A stretch of 32,931 bases of DNA from a virus. Taxonomy: Duplodnaviria; Heunggongvirae; Uroviricota; Caudoviricetes. Made by a program: the position numbers and the translations under genes. The notes below the pieces were generated by a model. The model saw only the letters and a program-made list of their open reading frames with translations. It was not told the origin of the DNA and searched no databases. Below, piece by piece: positions 1 through 29,300 of this stretch; the stretch's first letter is position 1, and every line of letters begins with the position of its first letter. The stretch is taken from positions 1 to 32,931 of the IMG/VR virus record IMGVR_UViG_2740892235_000010. One strand, given 5' to 3'.

Positions 1-996
1 TTATGGACGCATTATGGACATTCCTGACACCGGGTTAAGAGTCACAGCATCTTGTAAGAAATCCGGTGCAAAGTGTGCGTAGGTCATAGTTTGCTGAATG
101 TTAGAATGACCCAGGATGCGCTGCAATGTGATTATGTTACCTCCATTCATTATAAAATGTGTGGCAAATGTATGCCTCAAAACATGCACTGCCTGTCCGT
201 CAGGTAAATCGGGTTTTACTTCCCTGAGAGCGTTGCGCACTTTGTAGTAACTGGCATTAAAAAGCCTGCCTGAATTTTTGGTCTTGATCCGTTTAATCAG
301 GTCCTGCGAAACGGGAATTGTCCTGCGCTTTCCGTTTTTAGTTTTCATAAACGTAACCATCTGGTTAATGATGTGTTCAGCTTTCAAATTAGACACTTCA
401 CTCCAGCGTCCACCAGTAGAAAGGCAGACCAGAGTTGCATTTAACTCATCGCCATCAAGCATGGATAACAGCCGCGTAATCTCTTCACTGGACAAAAAAG
501 CCATTTCCGTAACAGCTTCACGTAATCGCTTAACCTCACGGAACGGGTTGTGAGAGTGATATTCACCGGCGTCAATTAACTTGGTGAACATCCCGCTCAT
601 TATTGCCAGATGCCGATTTACGCTGGCTGGTTTTAGACCATCGTTCATCATTACAACGCGATAATCAGTTATCGTTTTCTTTGTTAGCTGGTCCGCCCTG
701 GACACTCCCATCTCAGCAAATTTGGCGATTATTGTCGTCAAACGCCCTCGTTCAATATCTCCACGCTCATGTGATTTTCCGTGATATATCCACCATCTGC
801 CTAACAACTCTGTAAGAGTTCGGCGGTCGGCCGGCTTCTCCAGCCACTCTTTGTTGTGGAAGTTAACCAGTACATGACGTTCGAATGCCTGAGCTTCACC
901 TTTAGTTTTAAATTTCCGCCTGATACGTTTTCCATCTGCACCCTGCGGTCTGACGTCCACTTCATAACGACCATCATCGAGCTTTTTAATAGACAT
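1..996 (-). CDS. int: Tyrosine integrase (P2 Int-like), 331 aa
   Basis: Complete ORF with ATG at 994-996 and stop at 1-3. C-terminal tyrosine-recombinase box (LRHTFATHF...GHSNIQQTMTYAH). Sits at the prophage end next to the repressor gene, as in P2. Confidence 0.9.
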   Translation of the reverse strand: MSIKKLDDGRYEVDVRPQGADGKRIRRKFKTKGEAQAFERHVLVNFHNKEWLEKPADRRTLTELLGRWWIYHGKSHERGDIERGRLTTIIAKFAEMGVSRADQLTKKTITDYRVVMMNDGLKPASVNRHLAIMSGMFTKLIDAGEYHSHNPFREVKRLREAVTEMAFLSSEEITRLLSMLDGDELNATLVCLSTGGRWSEVSNLKAEHIINQMVTFMKTKNGKRRTIPVSQDLIKRIKTKNSGRLFNASYYKVRNALREVKPDLPDGQAVHVLRHTFATHFIMNGGNIITLQRILGHSNIQQTMTYAHFAPDFLQDAVTLNPVSGMSIMRP

Positions 997-1089: not shown

Positions 1090-1389
1090 TCAGCCAGTCT
1101 TTTGGTCTGAGTGGTGCAAGGTTGTTGAGTCTTGCCCAATGTGTGCGAGCGCCGGGGCTATTTGTCCGGCAGCGGGATCTGTCTCATCAAACATGAACCA
1201 GTCACGATATTTACGGAATCTTGGGTGTTTCAGAAGTCGCACTACCGCGTCATGTGAAATGGATGATTTCCCATTTTCGTACCCCACATAGGTAACGTAA
1301 TTAATACCTGTCATTTCAGCTACTTCCTTCTTCTTGAGGCGTTCAGACTCACGAATAAGTTTAAGTTTCTCACGAATCTCAATTGACAT
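1090..1389 (-). CDS. C: Immunity repressor C-like HTH protein, 99 aa
   Basis: 99-aa ORF, the same size as P2 C, with an HTH-like segment (KKEVAEMTGINYVTYVGYENG). Lies between int and a divergent cox-like gene. Confidence 0.7.
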   Translation of the reverse strand: MSIEIREKLKLIRESERLKKKEVAEMTGINYVTYVGYENGKSSISHDAVVRLLKHPRFRKYRDWFMFDETDPAAGQIAPALAHIGQDSTTLHHSDQKTG

Positions 1390-1493
1390 AATGAATCAGA
1401 TCTCTTATTTTTAATCCGTTGTGATATTCCACACCTAACTCTAGCCAACTCTAACTAGCTTTAGTTTGTGGAGCCAATTAGGAGAATAGCAAA
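1390..1493. promoter_or_regulatory. Divergent early control region (Pc/Pe-type) with tandem direct repeat AACTCTA(G/A)C
   Basis: 104-bp intergenic region between divergent C and cox. Two adjacent 10-bp direct repeats at 1437-1446 and 1447-1456, which is how P2 C operators are arranged (direct repeats). Exact -35/-10 elements not assigned. Confidence 0.45.
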
Positions 1494-1850
1494 ATGAATG
1501 TCGGATCTGAAATTTCTGACGAGACAAGACAAGAAGTCTCAGTTCTTACAAAAGCAAAACGTCATTCAGTTAAATTGGCTGCTGTGCCTTCAGATTTGCT
1601 GTCGAAAGAGGGTTTTGCTCTTTACATAGGTAAGACACCACGCGCTGTAGCAGAAATGGCGAGAGCAGGCAAGCTCCCTGCGTTCTATATGACAGACCCA
1701 CTGAAGCCAGGGGGGAATGCTGAGTTATGGATTAATCGTCGTGAGTGGGACAAATATGCAGCTCAACTAGTCGATGAAGCTCCGACAGAATGGCATGACT
1801 GGAAGAACCGCATAAGTTATAGCAAGTCGAAATTAGGGCGTATGGTGTGA
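1494..1850 (+). CDS. cox: Cox-like excisionase/early regulator, 118 aa
   Basis: ATG at 1494 preceded by AGGAG. First gene of the rightward early operon, divergent from C. HTH-like segment (ALYIGKTPRAVAEMARAGKLPAFYMTDP) resembles Cox/Apl-type proteins. Confidence 0.6.
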   Translation: MNVGSEISDETRQEVSVLTKAKRHSVKLAAVPSDLLSKEGFALYIGKTPRAVAEMARAGKLPAFYMTDPLKPGGNAELWINRREWDKYAAQLVDEAPTEWHDWKNRISYSKSKLGRMV

Positions 1851-1859
1851 GGGCATGTT

Positions 1860-2456
1860 ATGAACACTATAGTAGGAAACACGGCAGCTAAAAAAATTCA
1901 ATCGTTGATCATCGAGCTGCGCACGAGACTTTTGTCGATTGAAGGGCAATCTAACGTATCAGCCATAGTTGATGACATAGAAATTGAAGCGAAAAAATTA
2001 GAAGAAGAAGTTAATTTTCTGGCTTTACCTGTAAGAGCTGCAGAAATTGAGACTTTGACGCATTTAATTAAATGTGGATGTGTCAGGCTGGAAAATAACA
2101 AAAGAGATGAACGTAATGAGATTATAAATAATTTACAAGAGTCATTTGCGTTAATCAGCCAGAATCAACATGCCCCAACTAAAACAAAAAGAAGCAAATC
2201 AAGTAAATTTGAGATTTTGCGTTTTGGTGATCTTTCTATTATTGGTTGCGAGCTAACCCCATTACGCAACTATGTGACTCTATACTGTAGAGCTTGTTAT
2301 GAAAATGACAGATTTATCGGTCATGTGTACTACGGAGTATCAAAGTTATCGGGTGACGAAAAAGGTTATAGCGAATTTGATGCACTGAGTATTATTAATG
2401 CTGTAGAAAAATATGCGCCAGGAATGCAAAAATACTCATGGCGCAAAGTAGATTGA
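1860..2456 (+). CDS. Hypothetical protein, 198 aa (AT-rich early-region cargo)
   Basis: ATG at 1860. Visibly AT-rich relative to the structural genes. No motif recognised. Confidence 0.55.
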   Translation: MNTIVGNTAAKKIQSLIIELRTRLLSIEGQSNVSAIVDDIEIEAKKLEEEVNFLALPVRAAEIETLTHLIKCGCVRLENNKRDERNEIINNLQESFALISQNQHAPTKTKRSKSSKFEILRFGDLSIIGCELTPLRNYVTLYCRACYENDRFIGHVYYGVSKLSGDEKGYSEFDALSIINAVEKYAPGMQKYSWRKVD

Positions 2457-2458
2457 AA

Positions 2459-2713
2459 TTATTTTTCTTTATTCAGCTCTAAGTATTCGCCGATAGTAGC
2501 ATGAAGATTTTTTAATTGCTCGAGTTGAATACTAATTGCAAGAACATTATCGCTTTTTAGGTTTAAGTCGGTATGAAGGTGTGCGAGTAGTCTCATCTTA
2601 CCCTCACTGACAATACCATCGATAGTGATTTTGTCTGGAAATACAGTAACAGTTTTTTTGTCCATTTTTACACCTTTTGTGGTTGGTTGTTTTTGGCGAT
2701 TCGATCTTACCAC
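2459..2713 (-). CDS. Hypothetical small protein, 84 aa (possibly 68 aa from internal Met at 2665)
   Basis: Convergent with the 198-aa ORF, tail-to-tail with a 2-bp gap. AT-rich. No motif recognised. Confidence 0.4.
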   Translation of the reverse strand: MVRSNRQKQPTTKGVKMDKKTVTVFPDKITIDGIVSEGKMRLLAHLHTDLNLKSDNVLAISIQLEQLKNLHATIGEYLELNKEK

Positions 2714-2764
2714 AAGACCATGTGCCGGACATGGCTAAAAACCGGCTCTGTTTCAGGAGGAGTT

Positions 2765-2935
2765 ATGCCGGAACCTCGTTGTATTGCTCAGTTATTGCGT
2801 AACGAAAGCCCAAGGGCGATTGACTTCACCATCACCCACGGTAAGGGGCGTAAGGGAATCATTATCCGCACCAAAAAACAGAGTCCGTTAAAAAAGGCTC
2901 TGACCTTTCTGAAAAGCCGGAGAGTATGGAAATGA
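2765..2935 (+). CDS. Small early protein, about 56 aa
   Basis: ATG at 2765 preceded by GGAGG. Basic protein. Position is analogous to P2 orf78. Confidence 0.4.
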   Translation: MPEPRCIAQLLRNESPRAIDFTITHGKGRKGIIIRTKKQSPLKKALTFLKSRRVWK

Positions 2936-4255: not shown

Positions 4256-4479
4256 TGCCGGACAACGTAGATTTTATTCAGGAACAACAGGCTGAATTAC
4301 TGGAGCGCCAGATTAACGCGGCAAGGGTAAAACATTGCGGTGCTTCTGCGCTGGTTTGCGAAGAGTGTGACGCGCCAATACCTGCTGCCCGTCGTGCGGC
4401 TTATCCGTCAGCCACGCGTTGTGTTTCCTGTCAGTCAGTCTTTGAAGCAAAAAACAAACATTACCGGAGAATGGCATGA
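4255..4479 (+). CDS. TraR/DksA-type C4 zinc-finger protein, 74 aa
   Basis: CxxC-17-CxxC motif (CEECDAPIPAARRAAYPSATRCVSC). Position matches P2 orf82. Confidence 0.75.
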   Translation: MPDNVDFIQEQQAELLERQINAARVKHCGASALVCEECDAPIPAARRAAYPSATRCVSCQSVFEAKNKHYRRMA

Positions 4480-4751
4480 GCATTCGTATTGAAATTGGCG
4501 AACGTTATGTCGTTACCAGTGACAGCTTTCAGTTTATTCTCCACGAGAAAAAGAGAGCGGAAAGCGGTAAAAACGCCGGTCAGGAATGGCTGGCGGTGGT
4601 TGGTTATTACCCGAAATTAAGCCAGCTCGTTTCCGGCCTGATGCATCACGATATTCTGACCGGAAGCGCAAAATCTTTTGCCGATTTAAACGCGCAGGTT
4701 GAGCAACTCAGCAAGCGTTGTTCAGAGGCTTTTGGCACACATGGCCGTTAA
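4476..4751 (+). CDS. Hypothetical early protein, 91 aa
   Basis: ORF immediately upstream of and overlapping the A start. Confidence 0.55.
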   Translation: MSIRIEIGERYVVTSDSFQFILHEKKRAESGKNAGQEWLAVVGYYPKLSQLVSGLMHHDILTGSAKSFADLNAQVEQLSKRCSEAFGTHGR

Positions 4752-7011
4752 AGCCTCCGGGCGTTTTGTCCCTTCGTCAGCATTTGCCGCAGGCACCGGT
4801 AAGACGTTTACCGGTGCTTATACATGGAACGCGCCACGTGAGGCTGTCGGGCGCGAAAGACCCCTTACACGTGATGAGATGCGTCAGGTGCAAGGTGTTT
4901 TATCCACGATTAACCGCCTGCCTTACTTTTTGCGCTCGCTGTTTACTTCACGCTATGACTACATCCGGCGCAATAAAAGCCCGGTGCACGGGTTTTATTT
5001 CCTCACATCCACTTTTCAGCGTCGTTTATGGCCGCGCATTGAGCGTGTGAATCAGCGCCATGAAATGAACACCGACGCGTCGTTGCTGTTTCTGGCAGAG
5101 CGTGACCACTATGCGCGCCTGCCTGGAATGAATGACAAGGAGCTGAAAAAGTTTGCTGCCCGTATCTCATCGCAGCTTTTCATGATGTATGAGGAAATCT
5201 GCGATGCCTGGGTGGATGCGCATGGCGAAAAAGAATCGCTGTTTACGGATGAGGCGCAGGCTCACCTGTATGGTCATGTTGCTGGCGCTGCACGTGCTTT
5301 CAATATTTCCCCGCTTTACTGGAAAAAATACCGTAAAGGGCAGATGACCACGAGGCAGGCATATTCTGCCATTGCCCGCCTGTTTAACGATGAGTGGTGG
5401 ACTCATCAGCTTAAAGGCCAGCGTATGCGCTGGCATGAGGCGTTACTGATAGCTGTCGGGGAGGTCAATAAAGACCGTTCTCCTTATGCCAGTAAACACG
5501 CCATTCGTGATGTGCGTGCGCGCCGCCAGGCAAATCTGGAATTTCTTAAATCGTGTGACCTTGAAAACAGGGAAACCGGCGAGCGCATCGACCTTATCAG
5601 TAAGGTGATGGGCAGTATTTCTAATCCTGAAATTCGCCGGATGGAGCTGATGAACACCATTGCCGGTATTGAGCGTTACGCCGCCGCAGAGGGTGATGTG
5701 GGGATGTTTATCACGCTGACCGCGCCGTCAAAGTATCACCCGACACGTCAGGTCGGAAAAGGCGAAAGTAAAACCGTTCAGCTTAATCACGGCTGGAACG
5801 ATGAGGCATTTAATCCAAAGGATGCGCAGCGTTATCTCTGCCGCATCTGGAGCCTGATGCGCACGGCATTCAAGGATAATGATTTACAGGTCTACGGTTT
5901 GCGAGTCGTCGAGCCACACCACGACGGAACGCCGCACTGGCATATGATGCTTTTTTGTAATCCACGCCAGCGTAACCAGATTATCGAAATCATGCGTCGC
6001 TATGCGCTCAAAGAGGATGGCGACGAAAGAGGAGCCGCGCGAAACCGTTTTCAGGCAAAACACCTTAACCGGGGCGGTGCTGCGGGATATATCGCGAAAT
6101 ACATTTCAAAAAATATCGACGGCTATGCACTGGATGGTCAGCTCGATAACGATACCGGCAGACCGCTGAAAGATACTGCAGCGGCTGTTACCGCATGGGC
6201 GTCAACGTGGCGCATTCCGCAATTTAAAACGGTTGGTCTGCCGACAATGGGGGCTTACCGTGAATTACGCAAATTGCCTCGCGGCGTCAGCATTGCTGAT
6301 GAGTTTGACGAGCGCGTCGAGGCTGCACGCGCCGCCGCAGACAGTGGTGATTTTGCGTTGTATATCAGCGCGCAGGGTGGGGCAAATGTTCCGCGCGATT
6401 GTCAGACTGTCAGAGTCGCCCGTAGCCCGTCGGATGAAGTTAACGAGTACGAGGAAGAAGTCGAGAGAGTGGTCGGCATTTACGCGCCGCATCTCGGCGC
6501 GCGTCATATTCATATCACCAGAACGACGGACTGGCGCATTGTGCCGAAAGTTCCAGTCGTGGAGCCTTTGACTTTAAAAAGCGGCATCGCCGCGCCTCGG
6601 AGTCCTGTCAATAACTGTGGAAAGCTCACCGGTAGTGATGTTTCGTTACCGGCTCCCACACCTTCTGAGCACGCCGCCGCAGTGCTTAATCTGGTTGATG
6701 ACGGTGTTATCGAATGGAATGACCAGGAGGTCGTGAGGGCGCTCAGGGGCGCATTAAAACACGACCTGAGAACACCAAACCGTCAGCAAAGAAGCGGAAG
6801 CCCGTTAAAACCGCATGAAATAGCGCCATCGGCCAGACTGACCCGGTCGGAACGAATGCAAATTACCCGTATCCGCGTTGACCTTGCTCAGAACGGTATC
6901 AGGCCGCAGCGATGGGAGCTTGAGGCGCTGGCGCGTGGGGCAACTGTAAATTACGACGGGAGAAGCTTCAGTTATCCTGTTATATGTGATTGGAGAGCGT
7001 ATGAATTATGA
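4741..7011 (+). CDS. A: Replication initiation endonuclease gpA (rolling-circle nickase)
   Basis: 756-aa protein starting MAVKASGRFVPSSAF at ATG 4741 (the ORF track's 4699 start is upstream and in frame). Size and N-terminus match P2 A. Follows the early genes. Confidence 0.9.
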   Translation: MAVKASGRFVPSSAFAAGTGKTFTGAYTWNAPREAVGRERPLTRDEMRQVQGVLSTINRLPYFLRSLFTSRYDYIRRNKSPVHGFYFLTSTFQRRLWPRIERVNQRHEMNTDASLLFLAERDHYARLPGMNDKELKKFAARISSQLFMMYEEICDAWVDAHGEKESLFTDEAQAHLYGHVAGAARAFNISPLYWKKYRKGQMTTRQAYSAIARLFNDEWWTHQLKGQRMRWHEALLIAVGEVNKDRSPYASKHAIRDVRARRQANLEFLKSCDLENRETGERIDLISKVMGSISNPEIRRMELMNTIAGIERYAAAEGDVGMFITLTAPSKYHPTRQVGKGESKTVQLNHGWNDEAFNPKDAQRYLCRIWSLMRTAFKDNDLQVYGLRVVEPHHDGTPHWHMMLFCNPRQRNQIIEIMRRYALKEDGDERGAARNRFQAKHLNRGGAAGYIAKYISKNIDGYALDGQLDNDTGRPLKDTAAAVTAWASTWRIPQFKTVGLPTMGAYRELRKLPRGVSIADEFDERVEAARAAADSGDFALYISAQGGANVPRDCQTVRVARSPSDEVNEYEEEVERVVGIYAPHLGARHIHITRTTDWRIVPKVPVVEPLTLKSGIAAPRSPVNNCGKLTGSDVSLPAPTPSEHAAAVLNLVDDGVIEWNDQEVVRALRGALKHDLRTPNRQQRSGSPLKPHEIAPSARLTRSERMQITRIRVDLAQNGIRPQRWELEALARGATVNYDGRSFSYPVICDWRAYEL

Positions 7012-7104
7012 GATTGTGATAAAAAGTAAATAATTAATATAATGCAATTGCTTGACTGTTTTAAAAGGGACAACGTAGTTGTGAACTATATTGTCCCGGG
7101 AGTA

Positions 7105-8160
7105 TTAATTTTTAAATATGGATTGTATGTATTCTATAGTGCTATCTTTAGCTCTGATGTCTTTTAAAGTGTTATTTATGAAATCTATTATTCTGTCATT
7201 ACTTAATAGTGGCGATAACGCATAACATGTTGTTGTGAATGTCATGACGTCACTAAAGCTTAGTGAAACACCTTTTGTCGCAGCGTTCTCAATCGCAAGA
7301 GACTCATCAATATCTAAGTTTGTTGCTCTTGGCCCTTTAAGGAAGATAACTTTTGAAATCCCGGATGCAGATGCTTTTGAAACGGCGTGATTAACATCTT
7401 GATAATTAAATGGTTTGTCTTTCACTTCTATAGAAAGGAAAACTATATCATCATGATATACATCTATGTCCAGTATCTCTTTTGAGGAGCTACCGGCCTG
7501 ATTGACGGGATGTGCTTTTATTATCCATCCTCTTTGTTCACCTAATAAATGTAACGAAATTGCGGCAGCAATCGCGCATGTTTCTCCATCACAAGGATGA
7601 GATATAATATTATAAATAATCTTATGGAAATCAAAATTAATTGAGTTCGGCGTTATAACTCTATTGGTTCGCTGTAGGGTAAAATATAATGCAATAACAA
7701 GCATTTCATAAGCTAAGGTTTGGGTTGTTGCTGCATGTAATATATCAATTGAAAGTTGTTGTAAAACCTTATCATTTCCTCTGCGCACAGGGTTATCAGA
7801 GGAGTGGAGCATGTAACGAGCTGGTTTATTTAGAAATGGCTCATTTGATGCGCCTAACTTACCCTCTAAAAATGGGCCTTCTACTTTGCCTACTATTACC
7901 GAATGACATAAACTTCTTGCATCATAGGCTCCGTCTACGGGGGCATTAGCTTGTAAAGCCAGAGGGTTTACTCTAGGGTCTGTTGCTTTTGCAAGTAAAC
8001 CAGTAATAAGTATATATCTGTATGTAAGGTGGGTGCCTAAAATTACATTTTGAATGGAGACCCATTGATTATTTGTTTTGTAATCAGTTAATTTTTTTGC
8101 ATCGTTGATTGCATTTATAATTACATTATAGGCTTGCTCATGATTTACTAATACTTTCAT
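7105..8160 (-). CDS. Candidate type II restriction endonuclease, 351 aa (family not assignable from memory)
   Basis: ATG at 8158-8160. Its start is overlapped by 23 nt by the upstream HTH controller gene. Divergent from a C5-MTase. Possible PD-(D/E)xK-like segment DIDVYHDDIVFLSIEVK. AT-rich. Confidence 0.5.
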   Translation of the reverse strand: MKVLVNHEQAYNVIINAINDAKKLTDYKTNNQWVSIQNVILGTHLTYRYILITGLLAKATDPRVNPLALQANAPVDGAYDARSLCHSVIVGKVEGPFLEGKLGASNEPFLNKPARYMLHSSDNPVRRGNDKVLQQLSIDILHAATTQTLAYEMLVIALYFTLQRTNRVITPNSINFDFHKIIYNIISHPCDGETCAIAAAISLHLLGEQRGWIIKAHPVNQAGSSSKEILDIDVYHDDIVFLSIEVKDKPFNYQDVNHAVSKASASGISKVIFLKGPRATNLDIDESLAIENAATKGVSLSFSDVMTFTTTCYALSPLLSNDRIIDFINNTLKDIRAKDSTIEYIQSIFKN

Positions 8161-8407
8161 AGGTGTCCTTTAGTAAGATATCCATTGGTAGACCTAATCG
8201 GCTTGCAACCACCTCTAATAATTCAAATAGTTCTAAAGCATCTAATCGCCTTTCAAAGCTTTCGATTTTAGATATATCTGATTGTGATAATCCTAGAAAA
8301 ATGGCCAATTCTGACTGCGAAAGAGAAGCTTCTTTGCGTAGTTTGGTGAGAAGCTGGACTAGGCACCTGTATCTATGATCATGTATAGTTGGTTGTCGTT
8401 TTGCCAT
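8138..8407 (-). CDS. Controller (C-protein)-like XRE-family HTH regulator, about 89 aa
   Basis: HTH segment LSQSELAIFLGLSQSDISKIE. Immediately upstream of and overlapping the 351-aa gene. Start taken at ATG 8405-8407; an alternative ATG at 8450-8452 would overlap the MTase start. Confidence 0.6.
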   Translation of the reverse strand: MAKRQPTIHDHRYRCLVQLLTKLRKEASLSQSELAIFLGLSQSDISKIESFERRLDALELFELLEVVASRLGLPMDILLKDTYESISKS

Positions 8408-8490
8408 GTGGTTTAGAAGGTGATTGATTGTGTGTCGATCCTTACCTATCATTGGTTTTATTCCAAAATCGAATAATTGGTGCTAAAGAA
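8408..8490. promoter_or_regulatory. Divergent promoter/operator region of the R-M-like module (candidate C-box location)
   Basis: Short region between the divergent controller and MTase genes. Operator position inferred from C-protein systems; no convincing palindrome assigned. Confidence 0.3.
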
Positions 8491-9582
8491 GTGAACAAAA
8501 TTTCAGCGGTGAGCTTATTTACTGGGGCAGGAGGGATGGATGTCGGTTTCTCTAATGCCGGGTTCCGAACAGTTTGGGCCAATGATATAGATAAGGATGC
8601 ATGTGATACATTTAAGCTTAATCATGAATCACCTGTTTTTTGTGGTGATATTGATGAGATGCTAAGTGAATTGTCTGGGCTGAAAAATATAGGTTGTGTT
8701 TTTGGTGGGCCTCCATGCCAAGGATTTTCTGTGGCAGGGAAAATGGACGCTCATGATCCACGTAGTAAGCTGGTTATGTCATTCATGCGGGCGGTGGATA
8801 TAATTCAACCAGAATGCTTTGTTATGGAGAATGTTAAGGCTTTAGCACAGTTGTCCAAATTTGAACCAGTTAGGTGTGAACTGTTTAAGATGGCTGAAAA
8901 GTCAGGCTATCGTTCAGCCTTGCTGGTGCTGAATTCTAAAGATTTTGGCGTTCCTCAGAATAGGGAACGTATGTTTTTTATAGGGTTTCGTTCCGAAAAT
9001 GATGTGAAACGAGTTGAGGCGGCGATAAAAAAATACCAATATCTTTCGCCAACAGTTGGTGAGATTATTCGGCCTTTAGGGCGAGCGGGTAATCCAAACA
9101 ATTCAAGAGTCTGTAATGCAAGGATTACAAATGCTGCTAAGCCAGTATTACGGAAGTCACCTTACGCGGGAATGATGTTTAACGGGCAGGGAAGACCAAT
9201 TAACCCGAATGGGTATGCTTCAACTATAGCTGCTTCTATGGGGGGGAATAGGACACCAATTATTGATGAAGAACACCTTTATGATGGCTCAACAAGTTAT
9301 GTTGAGACTTATCATAATCATCTAATGAATGGTGGTGAGCCAAAAGATATGCACGATGTACCTAGTCGTTTACGTCGACTAACGATAGATGAGGCTCTTT
9401 TGATTCAAACATTCCCGAGTAATTATGTCTTTGTGGGGAAAAATTCGTCAATTTGGCGTCAGATAGGGAATGCTGTGCCTTGTAAATTGGCGCAGGCTGT
9501 TGCTGCAGGGGTTTTGGATGTCCTTACTGGTAAAACTATTAATGTTCAAAAGAGTCAAACAGAGTTGAGTTTGAATTCGTAA
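8428..9582 (+). CDS. DNA (cytosine-5)-methyltransferase
   Basis: Motif I FTGAGGMDVGF, motif IV GGPPCQGFS, motif VI FVMENV, motif VIII QNRERMFFIGF, motif X RQIGNAVP. Start is TTG at 8428 preceded by AGGTGA; alternative GTG at 8491. Confidence 0.9.
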   Translation: MCVDPYLSLVLFQNRIIGAKEVNKISAVSLFTGAGGMDVGFSNAGFRTVWANDIDKDACDTFKLNHESPVFCGDIDEMLSELSGLKNIGCVFGGPPCQGFSVAGKMDAHDPRSKLVMSFMRAVDIIQPECFVMENVKALAQLSKFEPVRCELFKMAEKSGYRSALLVLNSKDFGVPQNRERMFFIGFRSENDVKRVEAAIKKYQYLSPTVGEIIRPLGRAGNPNNSRVCNARITNAAKPVLRKSPYAGMMFNGQGRPINPNGYASTIAASMGGNRTPIIDEEHLYDGSTSYVETYHNHLMNGGEPKDMHDVPSRLRRLTIDEALLIQTFPSNYVFVGKNSSIWRQIGNAVPCKLAQAVAAGVLDVLTGKTINVQKSQTELSLNS

Positions 9583-9738
9583 AACGGATCACATTTTCAA
9601 ACCGATGGATGCAGAATTTAACATTGCTGCATGAGTTTGCATCTTGAAATCATAAGCTGTACTGCTTGGCTTGACCAGAATTGATGTGGGTAAGAAGTGG
9701 TTATGCACCCGCATTAAAACCGCCCCATTAAGCGGGCG

Positions 9739-9757
9739 GGCGAGGCGGGGAAAGCAC
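9739..9757. other. cos cohesive-end sequence (GGCGAGGCGGGGAAAGCAC) of P2-type phages
   Basis: Exact 19-nt string recalled as the P2 cohesive end. Lies in the GC-rich non-coding stretch between the cargo and Q, where P2 cos is located. Confidence 0.6.
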
Positions 9758-9899
9758 TGCGCGCTGGCGGTGGTGCTGATTTTATTTTTTCAGCGTCTGA
9801 GCGCGTCGTGGCGGCGTTTAGATTTTGCGCCGGGGCGTTGCTGTGTCTGCGGGCTGTTTTGTGCGGTGGTGAGCGTGTGAGGGCGTGATGACTGGGTGT

Positions 9900-9921
9900 A
9901 AAAAAGCCGCCCGCAGGCGGC
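9900..9921 (-). terminator. Rho-independent terminator downstream of Q (end of the Q-P operon)
   Basis: Stem GCCGCC/GGCGGC (9906-9911 / 9916-9921) with a 4-nt loop, followed on the minus strand by T6 (complement of A 9900-9905). 5 nt after the Q stop. Confidence 0.6.
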
Positions 9922-9926
9922 GATGT

Positions 9927-10961
9927 TCAGCCGTTGTCAGTGTCCAGTGAGTAGTTTTTAAAGCGGATGACCTCCTGACCGAGCCAGCCGTTTATCTCGC
10001 GGATCCTGTCCTGTAACGGGATAAGCTCATTGCGGACAAAGACCTTTGCCACTTTCTCAATATCACCCAGCGACCCGACGTTCTCCGGCTTGCCGCCCAT
10101 CAACTGAAAGGGGATGCGGTGCGCGTCCAGCAGGTCAGCGGCGCTGGCTTTTTTGATATTAAAAAAATCGTCCTTCGTTGCCACTTCACTGAGCGGGATA
10201 ATTTTAATGCCGTCGGCTTTTCCCTGCGGGGCATAGAGAAACAGATTTTTAAAGTTGTTGCGGCCTTTCGACTTGACCATGTTTTCGCGAAGCATTTCGA
10301 TATCGTTGCGATCCTGCACGGCATCAGTGACGTACATGATGTATCCGGCATGTGCGCCGTTTTCGTAATACTTGCGGCGGAACAGCGTGGCTGACTCATT
10401 CAGCCAGGCAGAGTTAAGGGCGCTGAGATATTCCGGCATGCCGTACAGCTCCTGATTAATATCCGGCTCCAGCAGATGAAACACGGAGCCGGGCGCGAAA
10501 GGTGTCGGCTCGTTGAAGGACGGCACCCACCAGTAAACATCCTCCTCCACGCCACGGCGGGTATATTTTGCCGGTGAGGTTTCCAGTCTGATGACCTTAC
10601 CGGTGGTGCTGTAACGCTTTTCCAGAAACGCATTACCGAACACCAGAAAATCCAGCGCAAAGCGGCTGAAATCCTGCTGGGAAAGCCACGGATGCGGGAT
10701 AAATGTCGAGGCCAGAATATTGCGTTTGACGTAAATCGGGGAGCTGTGATGCACGGCAGCACGCAGGCTTTTTGCCAGACCGGTAAAGCTGACCGGTGGC
10801 TCATACCATCTGCCGTTACTGATGCACTCGACGTAATCCAGAATGTCACGGCGGTCGAGTACCGGCACCGGTTCACCAAAGGTGAATGCCTCCATTTTCG
10901 GGGCGCTGGCGGTCATTTTTTTTGCCGCAGGTTGCGGTGTTTTCCCTTTTTTCTTGCTCAT
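9927..10961 (-). CDS. Q: Capsid portal protein gpQ
   Basis: 344-aa ORF, same size as P2 Q, and the sequence agrees with what I recall of P2 Q. Operon with P, divergent from O. Confidence 0.9.
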   Translation of the reverse strand: MSKKKGKTPQPAAKKMTASAPKMEAFTFGEPVPVLDRRDILDYVECISNGRWYEPPVSFTGLAKSLRAAVHHSSPIYVKRNILASTFIPHPWLSQQDFSRFALDFLVFGNAFLEKRYSTTGKVIRLETSPAKYTRRGVEEDVYWWVPSFNEPTPFAPGSVFHLLEPDINQELYGMPEYLSALNSAWLNESATLFRRKYYENGAHAGYIMYVTDAVQDRNDIEMLRENMVKSKGRNNFKNLFLYAPQGKADGIKIIPLSEVATKDDFFNIKKASAADLLDAHRIPFQLMGGKPENVGSLGDIEKVAKVFVRNELIPLQDRIREINGWLGQEVIRFKNYSLDTDNG

Positions 10962-26168: not shown

Positions 26169-26302
26169 CGGTTGACGATCTGGTGGCTGATATCGCCACC
26201 ATCTTTCACTGGCCGCCATCCGTTACTGACGTTATGCCGCTGACCGAAGTGCTGGAATGGCGGTATAAAGCGATTCAGAGAAGCGGGGCCAACGATGAGT
26301 GA
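25866..26302 (+). CDS. E': gpE+E' extended chaperone produced by -1 programmed frameshift at T_TTT_TTG (26123-26129)
   Basis: Slippery heptamer in the E frame. The -1 frame stays open to TGA 26300-26302, overlapping the T start at 26295. Conserved arrangement in P2-like phages. Confidence 0.6.
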
Positions 26303-29300
26303 TAATAACCTGCGCCTGCAGGTCATTCTTAATGCGGTTGACAAACTCACCCGCCCATTCCGTGCTGCACAGGCCAGTTCGAAAGAGCTGGCTGGCGCAA
26401 TTCAGAATACCCGAAACAGCCTCAAAGAACTGAATAAGCAGGCTGGCAGAATTGATGAATTTCGCAAGACGCGCTCGCAACTAGCCATAACAGCCAACAA
26501 CCTGAACGCAGCCCGCGAAGAGGCGGCAAAACTCGCCACACAATTTGCTGCCACTAACAGGCCAACCGCCGCGCAGGCAAAGTTATTCAGTCAGGCCAAA
26601 ACACGAGTACAGGAACTTCAGCAGACCTATAACGGCTTGTTGGGGGCGGTCCAGAGACAACGTCAGGCACTTAAAGAATCAGGGATTGATACCAGACAAC
26701 TCAGTAGTGCCCAGCGAGAACTTAAGAAAAATGCCGAAGAAACTCGTCAGGCACTGGAGGGCCAGCAAAAAGCACTTAAACGTCTGGGTGAACAACAGGC
26801 ACGGATGAACGCTGCCAGAGAACAATACTCAAGACGGCTTGAAGTGCGCGATCGCATCGCAGGAGCCGGAGCCACCACCACGGCTGCAGGGCTGGCAATG
26901 GGCGCGCCAGTGATGGCGGCGGTAAAAAGCTATACCAGCATGGAAGATGCCATGAAAGGTGTGGCAAAGCAGGTCAATGGTCTGCGTGACGATAATGGCA
27001 ACCGCACTGCGCGTTTTTACGAAATGCAGGATGCCATCAAAGCTGCCAGTGAACAGCTGCCAATGGAAAACGGTGCTGTGGACTTCGCCGCACTGGTTGA
27101 AGGTGGTGCGCGCATGAATGTGGCAAACCCTGACGACAGCTGGGAGGACCAGAAACGTGACCTGCTGGCCTTCGCCAGTACGGCAGCAAAGGCGGCAACA
27201 GCCTTTGAGCTGCCAGCGGATGAACTGTCAGAAAGTCTGGGGAAAATCGCCCAGCTCTACAAAATACCAACCCGCAATATTGAACAGCTCGGTGATGCGC
27301 TGAACTATCTGGATGATAACGCTATGTCGAAAGGGGCAGACATCATTGATGTCATGCAACGCCTGGGCGGTGTGGCTGATCGTCTGGATTATCGTAAAGC
27401 GGCGGCGCTGGGTTCCACCTTCCTGACACTGGGTGCTGCGCCGGAGGTCGCTGCCAGTGCTGCCAACGCGATGGTGCGTGAATTGTCCATTGCCACCATG
27501 CAAAGCAAGAGTTTCTTTGAAGGAATGAATCTGCTGAAACTCAATCCTGAAGTGATTGAAAAGCAGATGACGAAGGATGCGATGGGAACTATCCAGCGCG
27601 TACTGGAGAAGGTGAACGCACTGCCGCAGGATAAGCGCCTGTCTGCCATGACCATGTTGTTTGGTAAAGAGTTTGGCGATGATGCGGCGAAACTGGCAAA
27701 CAACCTGCCGGAACTGCAGCGCCAGCTAAAACTGACAGCTGGCAATGATGCGCTCGGTTCGATGCAGAAAGAATCCGACATTAACAAGGACTCACTTTCT
27801 GCGCAGTGGTTGCTGGTCAAAACCGGAGCGCAGAACACCTTCAGCAGCCTGGGCGAAACGCTGCGCCAGCCGCTGATGGATATTCTGTACACGGTGAAAA
27901 GCATCACGGGGGCGTTGCGTCGCTGGGTGGAAGCTAACCCTGAACTGACGGGCACACTGATGAAAGTAGCAGCGGTTGTGGCTGCTGTTACTGTGGGCCT
28001 CGGCACCCTGGCTGTGGTGTTGGCTGCTGTGCTGGGACCGCTGGCAGTCATCCGTCTGGGATTCTCTGTGCTGGGTATCAAAACGTTACCTTCCGTTACG
28101 GCAGCAGTAACGCGAACCAGCAGCGCGTTGTCCTGGTTGGCTGGCGCACCACTTGCACTGCTGCGACGCGGGCTTGCTTCATCGGGCAACGCCGCAGGTT
28201 TACTTACTGCGCCGTTGTCGTCTTTGCGCCGCACGGCATCACTGACGGGAAATGTCCTGAAAACTGTAGCAGGTGCGCCGGTTGCACTTTTGCGGTCTGG
28301 ATTATCCGGTTTACGTGCTGTTGCTGTGATGTTTATGAATCCTCTGGCGGTACTGCGCGGTGGACTGGCCTCCGCAGGCACGGTGCTGCGAGTACTGGCA
28401 TCTGGTCCACTGGCGATGCTGCGCGTTGCCCTGTATGCCGTATCTGGTCTGTTAGGTGCTCTGCTCAGTCCGATAGGTCTTGTGGTTACTGCACTGGCGG
28501 GCGTGGCGCTGGTTGTCTGGAAATACTGGCAACCCATCACCGCATTTCTTGGTGGCGTGGTGGAAGGATTCAAAGCGGCGGCAGGTCCCGTCAGTGCAGC
28601 ATTCGAAGCGCTTAAGCCCGTGTTCCAGTGGATTGGCGACAAAGTACAGGCGCTGTGGGGCTGGTTTACTGATCTGCTGACGCCCGTTAAGTCGACCTCT
28701 GCCGAACTGCAGAGTGCAGCGGCAATGGGGCGGCGATTCGGGGAGGCACTGGCGGAAGGGCTGAATATGGTCATGCATCCGCTGGACTCCCTGAAATCCG
28801 GCGTTTCCTGGTTGCTGGAGAAACTCGGCATTGTCAGTAAAGAGGCTGCAAAGGCGAAACTGCCGGAAAGAGTGACGCGTCAGCAACCTGCGACGGTGAA
28901 TGCAGACGGTAAAGTGATGATGCCATCGGGGGGGGTTCCGTCATGGGGATATGGCTTTGCGGGGATGTATGACAGCGGCGGCTATATCCCGCGCGGGCAG
29001 TTTGGCATCGTCGGTGAAAACGGGCCGGAAATTGTTAACGGCCCGGCAAATGTGACCAGCCGGAGAAATACAGCTGCACTGGCTGCCGTTGTTGCCGGAA
29101 TGATGGGCGTTGCTGCCGCGCCTGCAGAGCTTCCACCGTTGCATCCTTTGGCACTTCCCGCGAAAGGCGACGAAGCGATGGTGAGTCGTGCAGCCACTGT
29201 GCCGCCCGTTCACCGGATTGAGGCACCGACGCAGATCATCATTCAGACGCAGCCAGGACAAAGTGCGCAGGATATTGCGCGGGAGGTGGCACGCCAGCTT

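Follow-up and report, generated by a model that had tools for sequence, protein, structure and literature searches.

A rare insert between cox and orf78

The DNA analysed here, referred to as the window, is the whole 32,931-nucleotide stretch of IMG/VR virus record IMGVR_UViG_2740892235_000010, a P2-like prophage of Escherichia coli. Our subject is an insert in its early operon, between cox and orf78, which holds two convergent genes, F1 and R1, and a conserved element of ~80 nucleotides (nt). An earlier reading of the bare letters, made without database searches (the original prediction), had noticed at this place a plus-strand open reading frame (ORF) of 198 amino acids (aa; 1860-2456) and a minus-strand ORF of 84 aa (2459-2713), tail to tail with a 2-bp gap. 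This layout was borne out, with the stops ending at 2456 and 2459. The region is a real and rare accessory insert of the ordinary moron kind, but its architecture is unusual in following a rule, and two of its conserved features, the element and a short motif resembling the phage portal, still lack an explanation. The insert, its genes and its anchors are as follows.

1494..1850, plus strand: cox (118 aa), the left anchor of the insertion site (Pfam Phage_Cox, 101.5 bits; PHROG 1831)
1851..2764, no strand: inserted segment of ~914 bp with 36% GC, relative to the empty cox/orf78 junction, from comparison with the empty-site locus L002 and P2 and from composition
1860..2456, plus strand: F1, the forward-slot gene (198 aa, ATG start), an ORF directly after the cox stop with its own GAGG-type ribosome-binding site
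2459..2665, minus strand: R1, the reverse-slot gene (68 aa), convergent with F1 across the 2-bp gap, placed from its homologues; the NCBI annotation pipeline (PGAP) calls the same coding sequence
2765..2935, plus strand: orf78 homologue (56 aa), the right anchor, overlapping the start of B; length and position as in P2 Orf78

In P2 (NC_001895), cox ends at 26280 and Orf78 (56 aa) starts at 26291, a spacing of 10 bp, and B starts at 26458, which agrees with the original prediction, where orf78 was named as the sole gene separating cox from B in P2. The junction is likewise empty in L002, in 77 of 80 IMG/VR prophages whose B proteins are 99-100% identical, and in ~27 of 33 species-level relatives. 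The right anchor, orf78, is conserved in all loci compared; downstream of it in the window come B, then DUF2732, DUF5405 and TraR genes, and A. The contrast in composition given in the original prediction also holds: the whole cassette has 35.7% GC against 43.5% in the left flank and 44.6% in the right, with 34-36% in 200-nt windows over 2000-2700 as opposed to 45-52% in the flanking phage genes. Other cassettes at the junction have 37-44% GC. Absence from relatives in which the core flanks are intact, alternative cargo at the same place and deviant composition are all found here, as in accessory (moron or hotspot) cassettes. Comparing the cox/orf78 junction across P2-like phages confirmed its variability, and the empty junctions, the rarity of the cassette and the alternative cassettes together support the accessory insertion that had been proposed.

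Within E. coli, the window cassette was found in 9 of 5426 complete genomes, in which it is 98.8-99.9% identical; the flanking cox region reaches only 91-96%. That the cassette is better conserved than its flanks suggests, from these identities, recent spread by recombination. No copy was found in deposited phage genomes.

Three observations concern individual copies and the left anchor. An 88-kb plasmid record of E. coli TUM11352 (NZ_CP134387.1, typed non-mobilisable) carries cox-F1-R1-B at 39505-41023, and the chromosome of the same strain has a second cassette copy with several frameshifts (L006); this may reflect a phage-plasmid or an assembly issue. The Cox protein of the window, with 118 aa compared with 91 aa in P2, has an N-terminal extension, and its Pfam match spans residues 26-106 only.

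Both reading frames are conserved genes

In a word-indexed search of 5.8 billion proteins, F1 and R1 each fell into a single 90% cluster, with members from E. coli, Shigella and Salmonella Newport, and an alignment search yielded nothing beyond these. An exhaustive HMMER scan of 1.84 billion representatives detected five distant F1 relatives (206-284 aa, 23-46% identity). All five lie directly after cox in P2-like prophages, including those of Salmonella Manhattan and Citrobacter werkmanii, and each faces, in the same position as in the window, a convergent R1 homologue of 67-68 aa (28-66% identity). The F1/R1 context was thus matched in Salmonella, Citrobacter and three further enterobacterial contigs. 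An R1 homologue was also detected in a 186-like phage with a hidden Markov model (HMM) built from the R1-family alignment (A2; E 3.5e-19); a single-protein scan with the Salmonella R1 gave no match. In the F1-family alignment (A1), members are marked by the motifs AE.ETL.HLIK.G and SR.YY.NG.H.G.IYYG in a protein encoded directly after cox, and the R1 family is marked by V.VYP.KIT..G...HLHTDL.LK..D.L in a protein of 67-68 aa.

Where synonymous change is unsaturated, the ratio of non-synonymous to synonymous substitution (dN/dS) is 0.20-0.55 for F1 and 0.13-0.56 for R1. Because the diverged homologues keep the same arrangement and dN/dS is below 1 wherever it is measurable, both ORFs are, on this comparative evidence, real genes. 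The original prediction had named two findings that would overturn it: both ORFs might prove to be conserved core genes with known roles, or the minus-strand ORF might lack coding signal in homologues. Neither was found, and in homologues the minus-strand ORF is clearly coding.

For this small ORF, presence, orientation and coding in homologues stood and the start did not. The longest minus-strand ORF, as first described, opens at a GTG at 2713 (84 aa, 2459-2713). The gene most likely starts at the ATG at 2665 (68 aa) instead, because a Shine-Dalgarno-like sequence lies upstream of it, the NCBI call is 207 bp long and all homologues start at the equivalent Met. The six homologues in the R1 alignment are all 67-68 aa long from that Met, and the annotation of a 99.9% identical genome has the same 207-bp R1 gene.

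2671..2676, minus strand: Shine-Dalgarno-like AAGGTG of R1, from reading the sequence

Searches of F1 and R1 against Pfam, PHROG, PADLOC and NCBIfam returned only noise, as did the family members against Pfam, and profile searches of PDB sequences with F1 and R1 gave no match, in keeping with the first impression that neither ORF has a recognisable motif. R1 is hydrophilic and has no hydrophobic stretch. For F1, low-confidence AlphaFold2 (AF2) models suggest a helical domain at the N-terminus (~aa 8-101), which a basic linker joins to a C-terminal part rich in beta structure. Zinc binding by F1 through C129, C142, C145 and H155 was considered and ruled out, as the cysteines are not conserved in the family.

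One site with two apparent slots

Unrelated cassettes occupy the same junction in other phages, nearly always as a forward ORF after cox and a convergent small reverse ORF.

F2/R2: 154 and 64 aa, in L003 (Escherichia albertii)
F6/R6: a diverged version of F2/R2, 139 and 63 aa, in L137
F3/R3: 62 and 58 aa, in L004 and also in Yersinia phage vB_YpM_115
F4/R2b: 79 and ~62 aa, in Huaxiibacter, Enterobacter and ~17 IMG/VR contigs
F5/R4: 66 and 91 aa, in Scandinavium
F7/R7: 199-203 and 62-64 aa, in IMG/VR contigs

At least seven forward and at least five reverse families are found at the junction, and across cassettes the facing genes are either separated by 0-29 bp or share up to 38 bp at their ends. 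In 186-like prophages (the IMG/VR contigs L145, L147, L165, L170, L174, L141 and L153), the element and convergent cassettes stand right after cII. PADLOC models matched none of the other cassette proteins except F4, which gave a weak match to a CARF model (E 0.0033).

Forward and reverse genes are paired in more than one way. R1 is found facing F1 and also an unrelated 141-aa protein, F8; the R2 family is combined with F2, F6 and F4; and the 186-like locus L141 contains a pair of reverse genes, with no ORF that makes a convincing forward gene. Because forward and reverse partners are shuffled between phages, the two positions look, from their gene content, like two semi-independent slots, one early-lytic and one prophage-expressed, rather than obligate cognate pairs. 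The same shuffling weakens the idea of an obligate pair, be it toxin-antitoxin or decoy-target. Exchange may also reach below the level of whole genes: F7 (L159, L147; 199-203 aa) is a mosaic in which the N-terminal helical region is F1-like, the portal-like motif is present and the C-terminal domain is a homologue of F4 (E ~1e-14), and this points to domain shuffling among cargo genes.

A conserved element upstream of every reverse gene

An element of ~80 nt (2668-2757 in the window) separates the start of each reverse gene from the ribosome-binding site of orf78. Different cassette types and genera share it, and empty sites lack it. It is single-copy in the window and present in 64 of the 5426 E. 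coli genomes (~47 with F3/R3, nine with F1/R1, four with F2/R2 and four with F6/R6); an exact-pattern scan detected it in 36 IMG/VR contigs. It comprises the following parts.

2675..2717, plus strand: hairpin HP1, an inverted repeat (CTTGTGGT / ACCACAAG) with a structured interior, from RNAalifold
2704..2715, minus strand: TTGTGGTAAGAT, which resembles an extended -10 (TGnTAnnAT) and precedes the R1 ATG by 38 nt, the putative reverse-gene promoter
2718-2722 with 2730-2734, plus strand: helix S1, CCAUG/CAUGG, 100% of cells paired
2724-2729 with 2741-2746, plus strand: helix S2, GCCGGA/ACCGGC in the window and GCCGGG/CCCGGC in the consensus, 88% of cells paired

In 11 of 11 cassettes the motif TTGTG.TA..AT is unchanged, even where the neighbouring sequence differs, and it stands 38-41 nt before the reverse ATG, or 56 nt in F3/R3. 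Such a motif upstream of every reverse gene fits the suggestion, made from the antisense orientation of the small ORF, that the insert may be an autonomous unit. Of the promoter and terminator by which morons are classically defined, the motif would be the promoter, with no good -35, and scans revealed no intrinsic terminator.

Covariation was tested for the three plus-strand helices in 21 distinct sequences. The helices are paired in 91.9% of cells, as compared with 31-44% when the partners are slid, and both sides change in six pairs (17 cells); only 0-4 of 500 shuffles reach these values. The core helix of HP1 is 96% paired with 2 covarying pairs, compensatory changes in S1 and S2 occur in L142, L159, L014 and the L037 clade, and L004 has a hairpin with the same base as HP1 despite an unrelated interior. 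S1 and S2 (2718..2746) interleave, with a first loop of 1 nt and an A-rich third loop (CUAAAA), in a geometry that is good on the plus strand and poor on the minus strand. From this topology, they would form an H-type pseudoknot on the plus strand. An Rfam search of the element returned no family above threshold; the only signal came from HP1, which matched RNA-OUT (RF00240) below threshold, at 20.7 bits against a gathering score of 41 (E 0.82). The hairpin and the possible pseudoknot are a candidate for a new cis-regulatory RNA of peduovirus early operons.

One copy of the element is interrupted. In the prophage L005 (locus 4300-5528) of E. coli 2013C-4830, also found in 2012C-4227, an IS3-family element lies between the R1 start region and the part with the -10-like motif and HP1; cox is frameshifted in this prophage, and the cassette copy is decaying.

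A portal-like motif in forward proteins

The second conserved feature lies in the C-terminal part of F1 and has its counterpart in the late region of the same prophage.

2265..2339, plus strand: aa 136-160 of F1 (RNYVTLYCRACYENDRFIGHVYYGV), the portal-like motif, better conserved than any other block in the F1 family
9927..10961, minus strand: portal gene gpQ (344 aa; Pfam Phage_portal, PF04860, 51.1 bits)

The F1-family block reads L(Y/F)SR.YY.NG.H.G.IYYG, with R144, Y147, G154, Y158 and G159 invariant. It resembles residues 188-213 of gpQ (NESATLFRRKYYENGAHAGYIMYVTD), which are the most conserved block of the P2-type portal (RRKYYxNGAHAGYIMY). Aligned with hhalign, A1 matched the portal of its own prophage at gpQ residues 188-212 (NESATLFRRKYYENGAHAGYIMYVT) with 87.9% probability (E 3.3e-6). 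When the F1-family HMM was run against 462 ORF segments of the window, gpQ was the only non-self match (18.9 bits; next best 3.2), and none of 5000 gpQ shuffles scored above 6.8 bits.

The likeness extends to other forward families. Three different forward proteins each gave weak PHROG matches to the same positions of the portal family phrog_68, and L(Y/F)xRxYYxNGxHxGxIxY is common to F1, F5, F7 and gpQ residues 191-210. F5, of 66 aa, is little besides the portal-like hairpin, the motif of F7 is CRPYYFNGSHAGNIHY, and one F1 relative has two motif copies. On the portal side, four F1-carrying prophages have the block in invariant form in their portals, and it aligns to QRDFFANGAKSPQIL, the FFxNG block of the HK97 portal 8CEZ. 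AF2 sets the F1 motif in a beta-hairpin, with low confidence. No similarity to late proteins was found for F2, F3 and F4.

At the level of sequence, this likeness between F1 and the portal is a shared motif and not family membership. P2- and HK97-type portals (PF04860) share ~25 residues with F1, F5 and F7, the rest of which is unrelated and far too short for a portal subunit. The match to Phage_portal is a local one of 25 columns, and Pfam scans of F1 and its relatives returned no Phage_portal match.

Proposed mode of action and its alternatives

The timing of the two genes can be read from the features on their left.

1-996, minus strand: int
1090-1389, minus strand: repressor C gene
1383..1411, plus strand: Pe-like early promoter, TTGACA-17-TATTTT, from a consensus scan; the annotated Pe of P2 has the same place relative to C and cox

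The Pe-like promoter would drive cox, F1 and the downstream replication genes. Scans found no intrinsic terminators between 1412 and 3014 and, by consensus, no plus-strand promoters in the same interval, and the forward gene is thus without a promoter of its own. Because no terminator lies between F1 and R1, early transcription would have to cross R1 antisense; the geometry, together with the absence of terminators and internal plus-strand promoters, is what suggests that F1 is early and that R1 is then switched off.

We favour, with a probability of roughly one half, an accessory cassette of two semi-independent slots around a conserved element, in which F1 is expressed early and R1 in the lysogen. 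In the first slot, F1 would belong to the early lytic operon and be made only once Pe fires, upon infection or induction, well before the late portal. In the second, a weak extended -10 promoter within the element would most likely drive leftward transcription of R1. In a lysogen, C would repress Pe and only the leftward promoter could fire, leaving R1 as a prophage-expressed product. Transcription from Pe would run through cox and F1, antisense across the whole of R1, head-on into the R1 promoter and on to the essential genes orf78-B-A; firing of Pe would silence R1, and R1 transcription would in turn dampen stray early transcription. The plus-strand structures closely follow the antisense stretch and immediately precede the ribosome-binding site of orf78. 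In this place they might insulate the replication message downstream or make it more stable, or they might help antisense RNA to pair faster with the R1 mRNA at its 5' end.

Portal proteins are known to trigger bacterial immunity through Avs4 and Avs11 (PMC13581612), and counter-defence genes need early expression, defence genes lysogenic expression (10.1101/2024.10.15.618418). F1 could be an early conflict protein whose C-terminal hairpin imitates the portal block and occupies a factor that recognises it, either a host portal sensor or a factor of a competitor. Of the ideas on F1, such portal mimicry is the best supported, through the resemblance to gpQ, yet a portal-mimic role in counter-defence remains a tentative proposal, which we hold to be rather improbable as its specific function. 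Less probable again is the full conjunction, in which forward proteins like F1 mimic the portal and disarm a portal-directed sensor or competitor factor before the real portal appears and, in addition, the hairpin and pseudoknot constitute an undescribed RNA device. R1 is most likely a small lysogenic-conversion protein, acting in exclusion or in regulation.

Several results weigh against these proposals. Neither F1, R1 nor orf78 matched any PADLOC defence or anti-defence model. The F1 models are of low confidence, with a predicted local distance difference test (pLDDT) score of 48 for the single sequence and 57 with a six-sequence alignment, and Foldseek searches of these models against BFVD and PDB returned nothing below E 0.1. 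The portal similarity is only 25 residues long, and known Avs sensors read whole folds, not short motifs (PMC13581612). F2, F3, F4 and F8 have no portal motif, which therefore cannot account for the whole site. As regards the element, the putative R1 promoter has no recognisable -35 and was missed by the consensus scan, the folding energy is unremarkable (z -0.7 to -1.9), and the covariation rests on related sequences with perhaps 6-7 independent events. Its palindromes could instead be DNA sites bound by a protein, which would give a similar pattern.

Among the alternatives, the one that survives best, although it is unlikely, is a poison and its antidote. F1 would be a toxic early protein for host take-over and R1, made in the lysogen, would neutralise leaky F1, with convergent transcription letting one of the two dominate. 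The genes are tightly apposed and they diverge in parallel (F1/R1 identities of 41%/66% for the pair W-L010 and 46%/60% for L008-L009, with L014 an outlier in both), whereas B follows a different tree; such co-divergence is, however, expected from linkage alone. The equivalent place in the related peduovirus 186, after cII, carries the host-toxic fil and dhr; these genes are small, non-essential and expressed early, and they block division and replication of the host. Yet no sequence similarity was found between the fil and dhr proteins and the forward or reverse cassette proteins, and 186 differs from the cassette in having no reverse gene and no conserved element. The shuffling of R1 and of the R2 family among forward partners, as well as the existence of cassettes with reverse genes only, also speaks against a poison tied to its antidote. 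Compared with type II toxin-antitoxin systems, the genes are convergent rather than in an operon, neither matches a Pfam or NCBIfam toxin or antitoxin, and their partners are shuffled; compared with type I systems, R1 is hydrophilic and no promoter for a short antisense RNA was found. The portal-like motif would also be left unexplained.

It is less probable still that F1 and R1 are hitch-hikers, that is, two unrelated genes working outside conflict, in host physiology or virulence, or decaying junk. The lack of functional annotation and the rarity of the cassette would agree with this, and P2-like morons can aid host fitness, as neaT does (PMC3573123). Purifying selection on both genes across 23-66% identity argues otherwise, as do the position and layout, which are strictly conserved in several genera. 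In E. coli the cassette is more conserved than its flanks, suggesting recent spread, and the portal-derived motif points toward phage biology.

A mainly regulatory role, with the proteins secondary, appears improbable. Here, the leftward transcript, antisense to F1 and cox, would collide with transcription from Pe and might read into C and int, stabilising lysogeny. The promoter-like element is indeed conserved whatever the cargo, no terminator was found between R1 and the same-strand C-int genes, and 186 uses a leftward promoter, pE, within the early operon to establish lysogeny. Against this, the reverse ORFs, R1 among them, are conserved at the protein level (dN/dS as low as 0.13), most P2-like phages thrive without the element, and Rho likely stops untranslated antisense RNA.

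Weakest and quite implausible is exclusion with a self-decoy, in which prophage R1 blocks superinfecting phages by binding their portal block and early F1 soaks up R1 on induction, freeing the phage to assemble its own portal: one scheme would then cover why an early protein has the portal motif, why the geometry is a silencing one and in what order the genes are expressed, but the motif-bearing F1, F5 and F7 pair with three unrelated reverse families (R1, R4 and R7), R1 is also paired with the motif-less F8, and binding by R1 is only postulated.

Relation to known systems

The reading with two semi-independent slots places the cassette beside the variable loci of P2-like phages, such as old/tin between gpA and gpQ and Z/fun in the tail region (PMC9122126, PMC3573123, 10.1101/2024.10.15.618418, PMC13586616). 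As in these, AT-rich cargo lies between conserved core genes, close relatives have alternative and unrelated cargo, turnover is decoupled from the backbone, and some cargo faces against its neighbours and has a promoter of its own, a putative one in the cassette. The cassette differs in its site, cox/orf78, which is inside the essential early operon, and in its very small cargo (0.5-1.1 kb). It also differs in combining a forward early slot and a reverse slot, always with the same structured element, and in giving no match to known defence systems. The literature describes the gpA-gpQ and tail hotspots and a third one beside the repressor (PMC9122126, PMC3573123, 10.1101/2024.10.15.618418); in the literature searched, we found no description of the cox/orf78 junction, these families, the element or the motif.

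The classical P2 hotspot between gpA and the portal gene is itself occupied in the window (7011-9927), by a type II restriction-modification pair. The ORF at 7105-8160 on the minus strand encodes a SacI-family endonuclease (258 bits), and the one at 8428-9582 on the plus strand encodes a C-5 cytosine methylase (226 bits).

Face-to-face transcription is also known from IS10 RNA-IN/RNA-OUT, lambda oop and pR/pL interference in 186. Like antisense modules of this kind, the cassette has a predicted stem-loop RNA, with a loop that could pair with the opposing mRNA over its 5' end, ribosome-binding site and start. Unlike in IS10 RNA-IN/RNA-OUT, no separate promoter for a short antisense RNA was found, so that the transcript of the early operon would have to serve as the antisense partner; the element is not a member of that family. 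Judged by the defining features compared, the cassette does not belong to the known families of defence systems, toxin-antitoxin modules, Rfam RNAs or portals.

Few sources have been mined for new anti-phage systems as thoroughly as P2-like prophages, with the focus so far on the gpA-gpQ and tail hotspots. The present data define a further exchange site inside the early operon, and with it a simple rule: the ~80-nt element has a reverse gene to its left, and cox or cII is usually followed by a forward gene. With this rule, cargo can be harvested from short contigs. The time of expression would sort such cargo, with forward early genes as candidates for counter-defence or take-over and reverse genes as candidates for lysogenic conversion. 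The portal-derived motif in three forward families offers a handle on how recognition of a conserved structural protein might be pre-empted, and the covarying element is a candidate new regulatory RNA. If it does act as an insulator or antisense switch, such a device would let temperate phages embed an opposite-facing, lysogen-expressed gene in an essential early operon.

One of the loci collected, the 620-bp contig L024 (NZ_JAVHZE010000081.1), is labelled as the actinobacterium Kocuria sabuli; it encodes a P2 B protein 88% identical to that of the window and is probably a contamination of that assembly.

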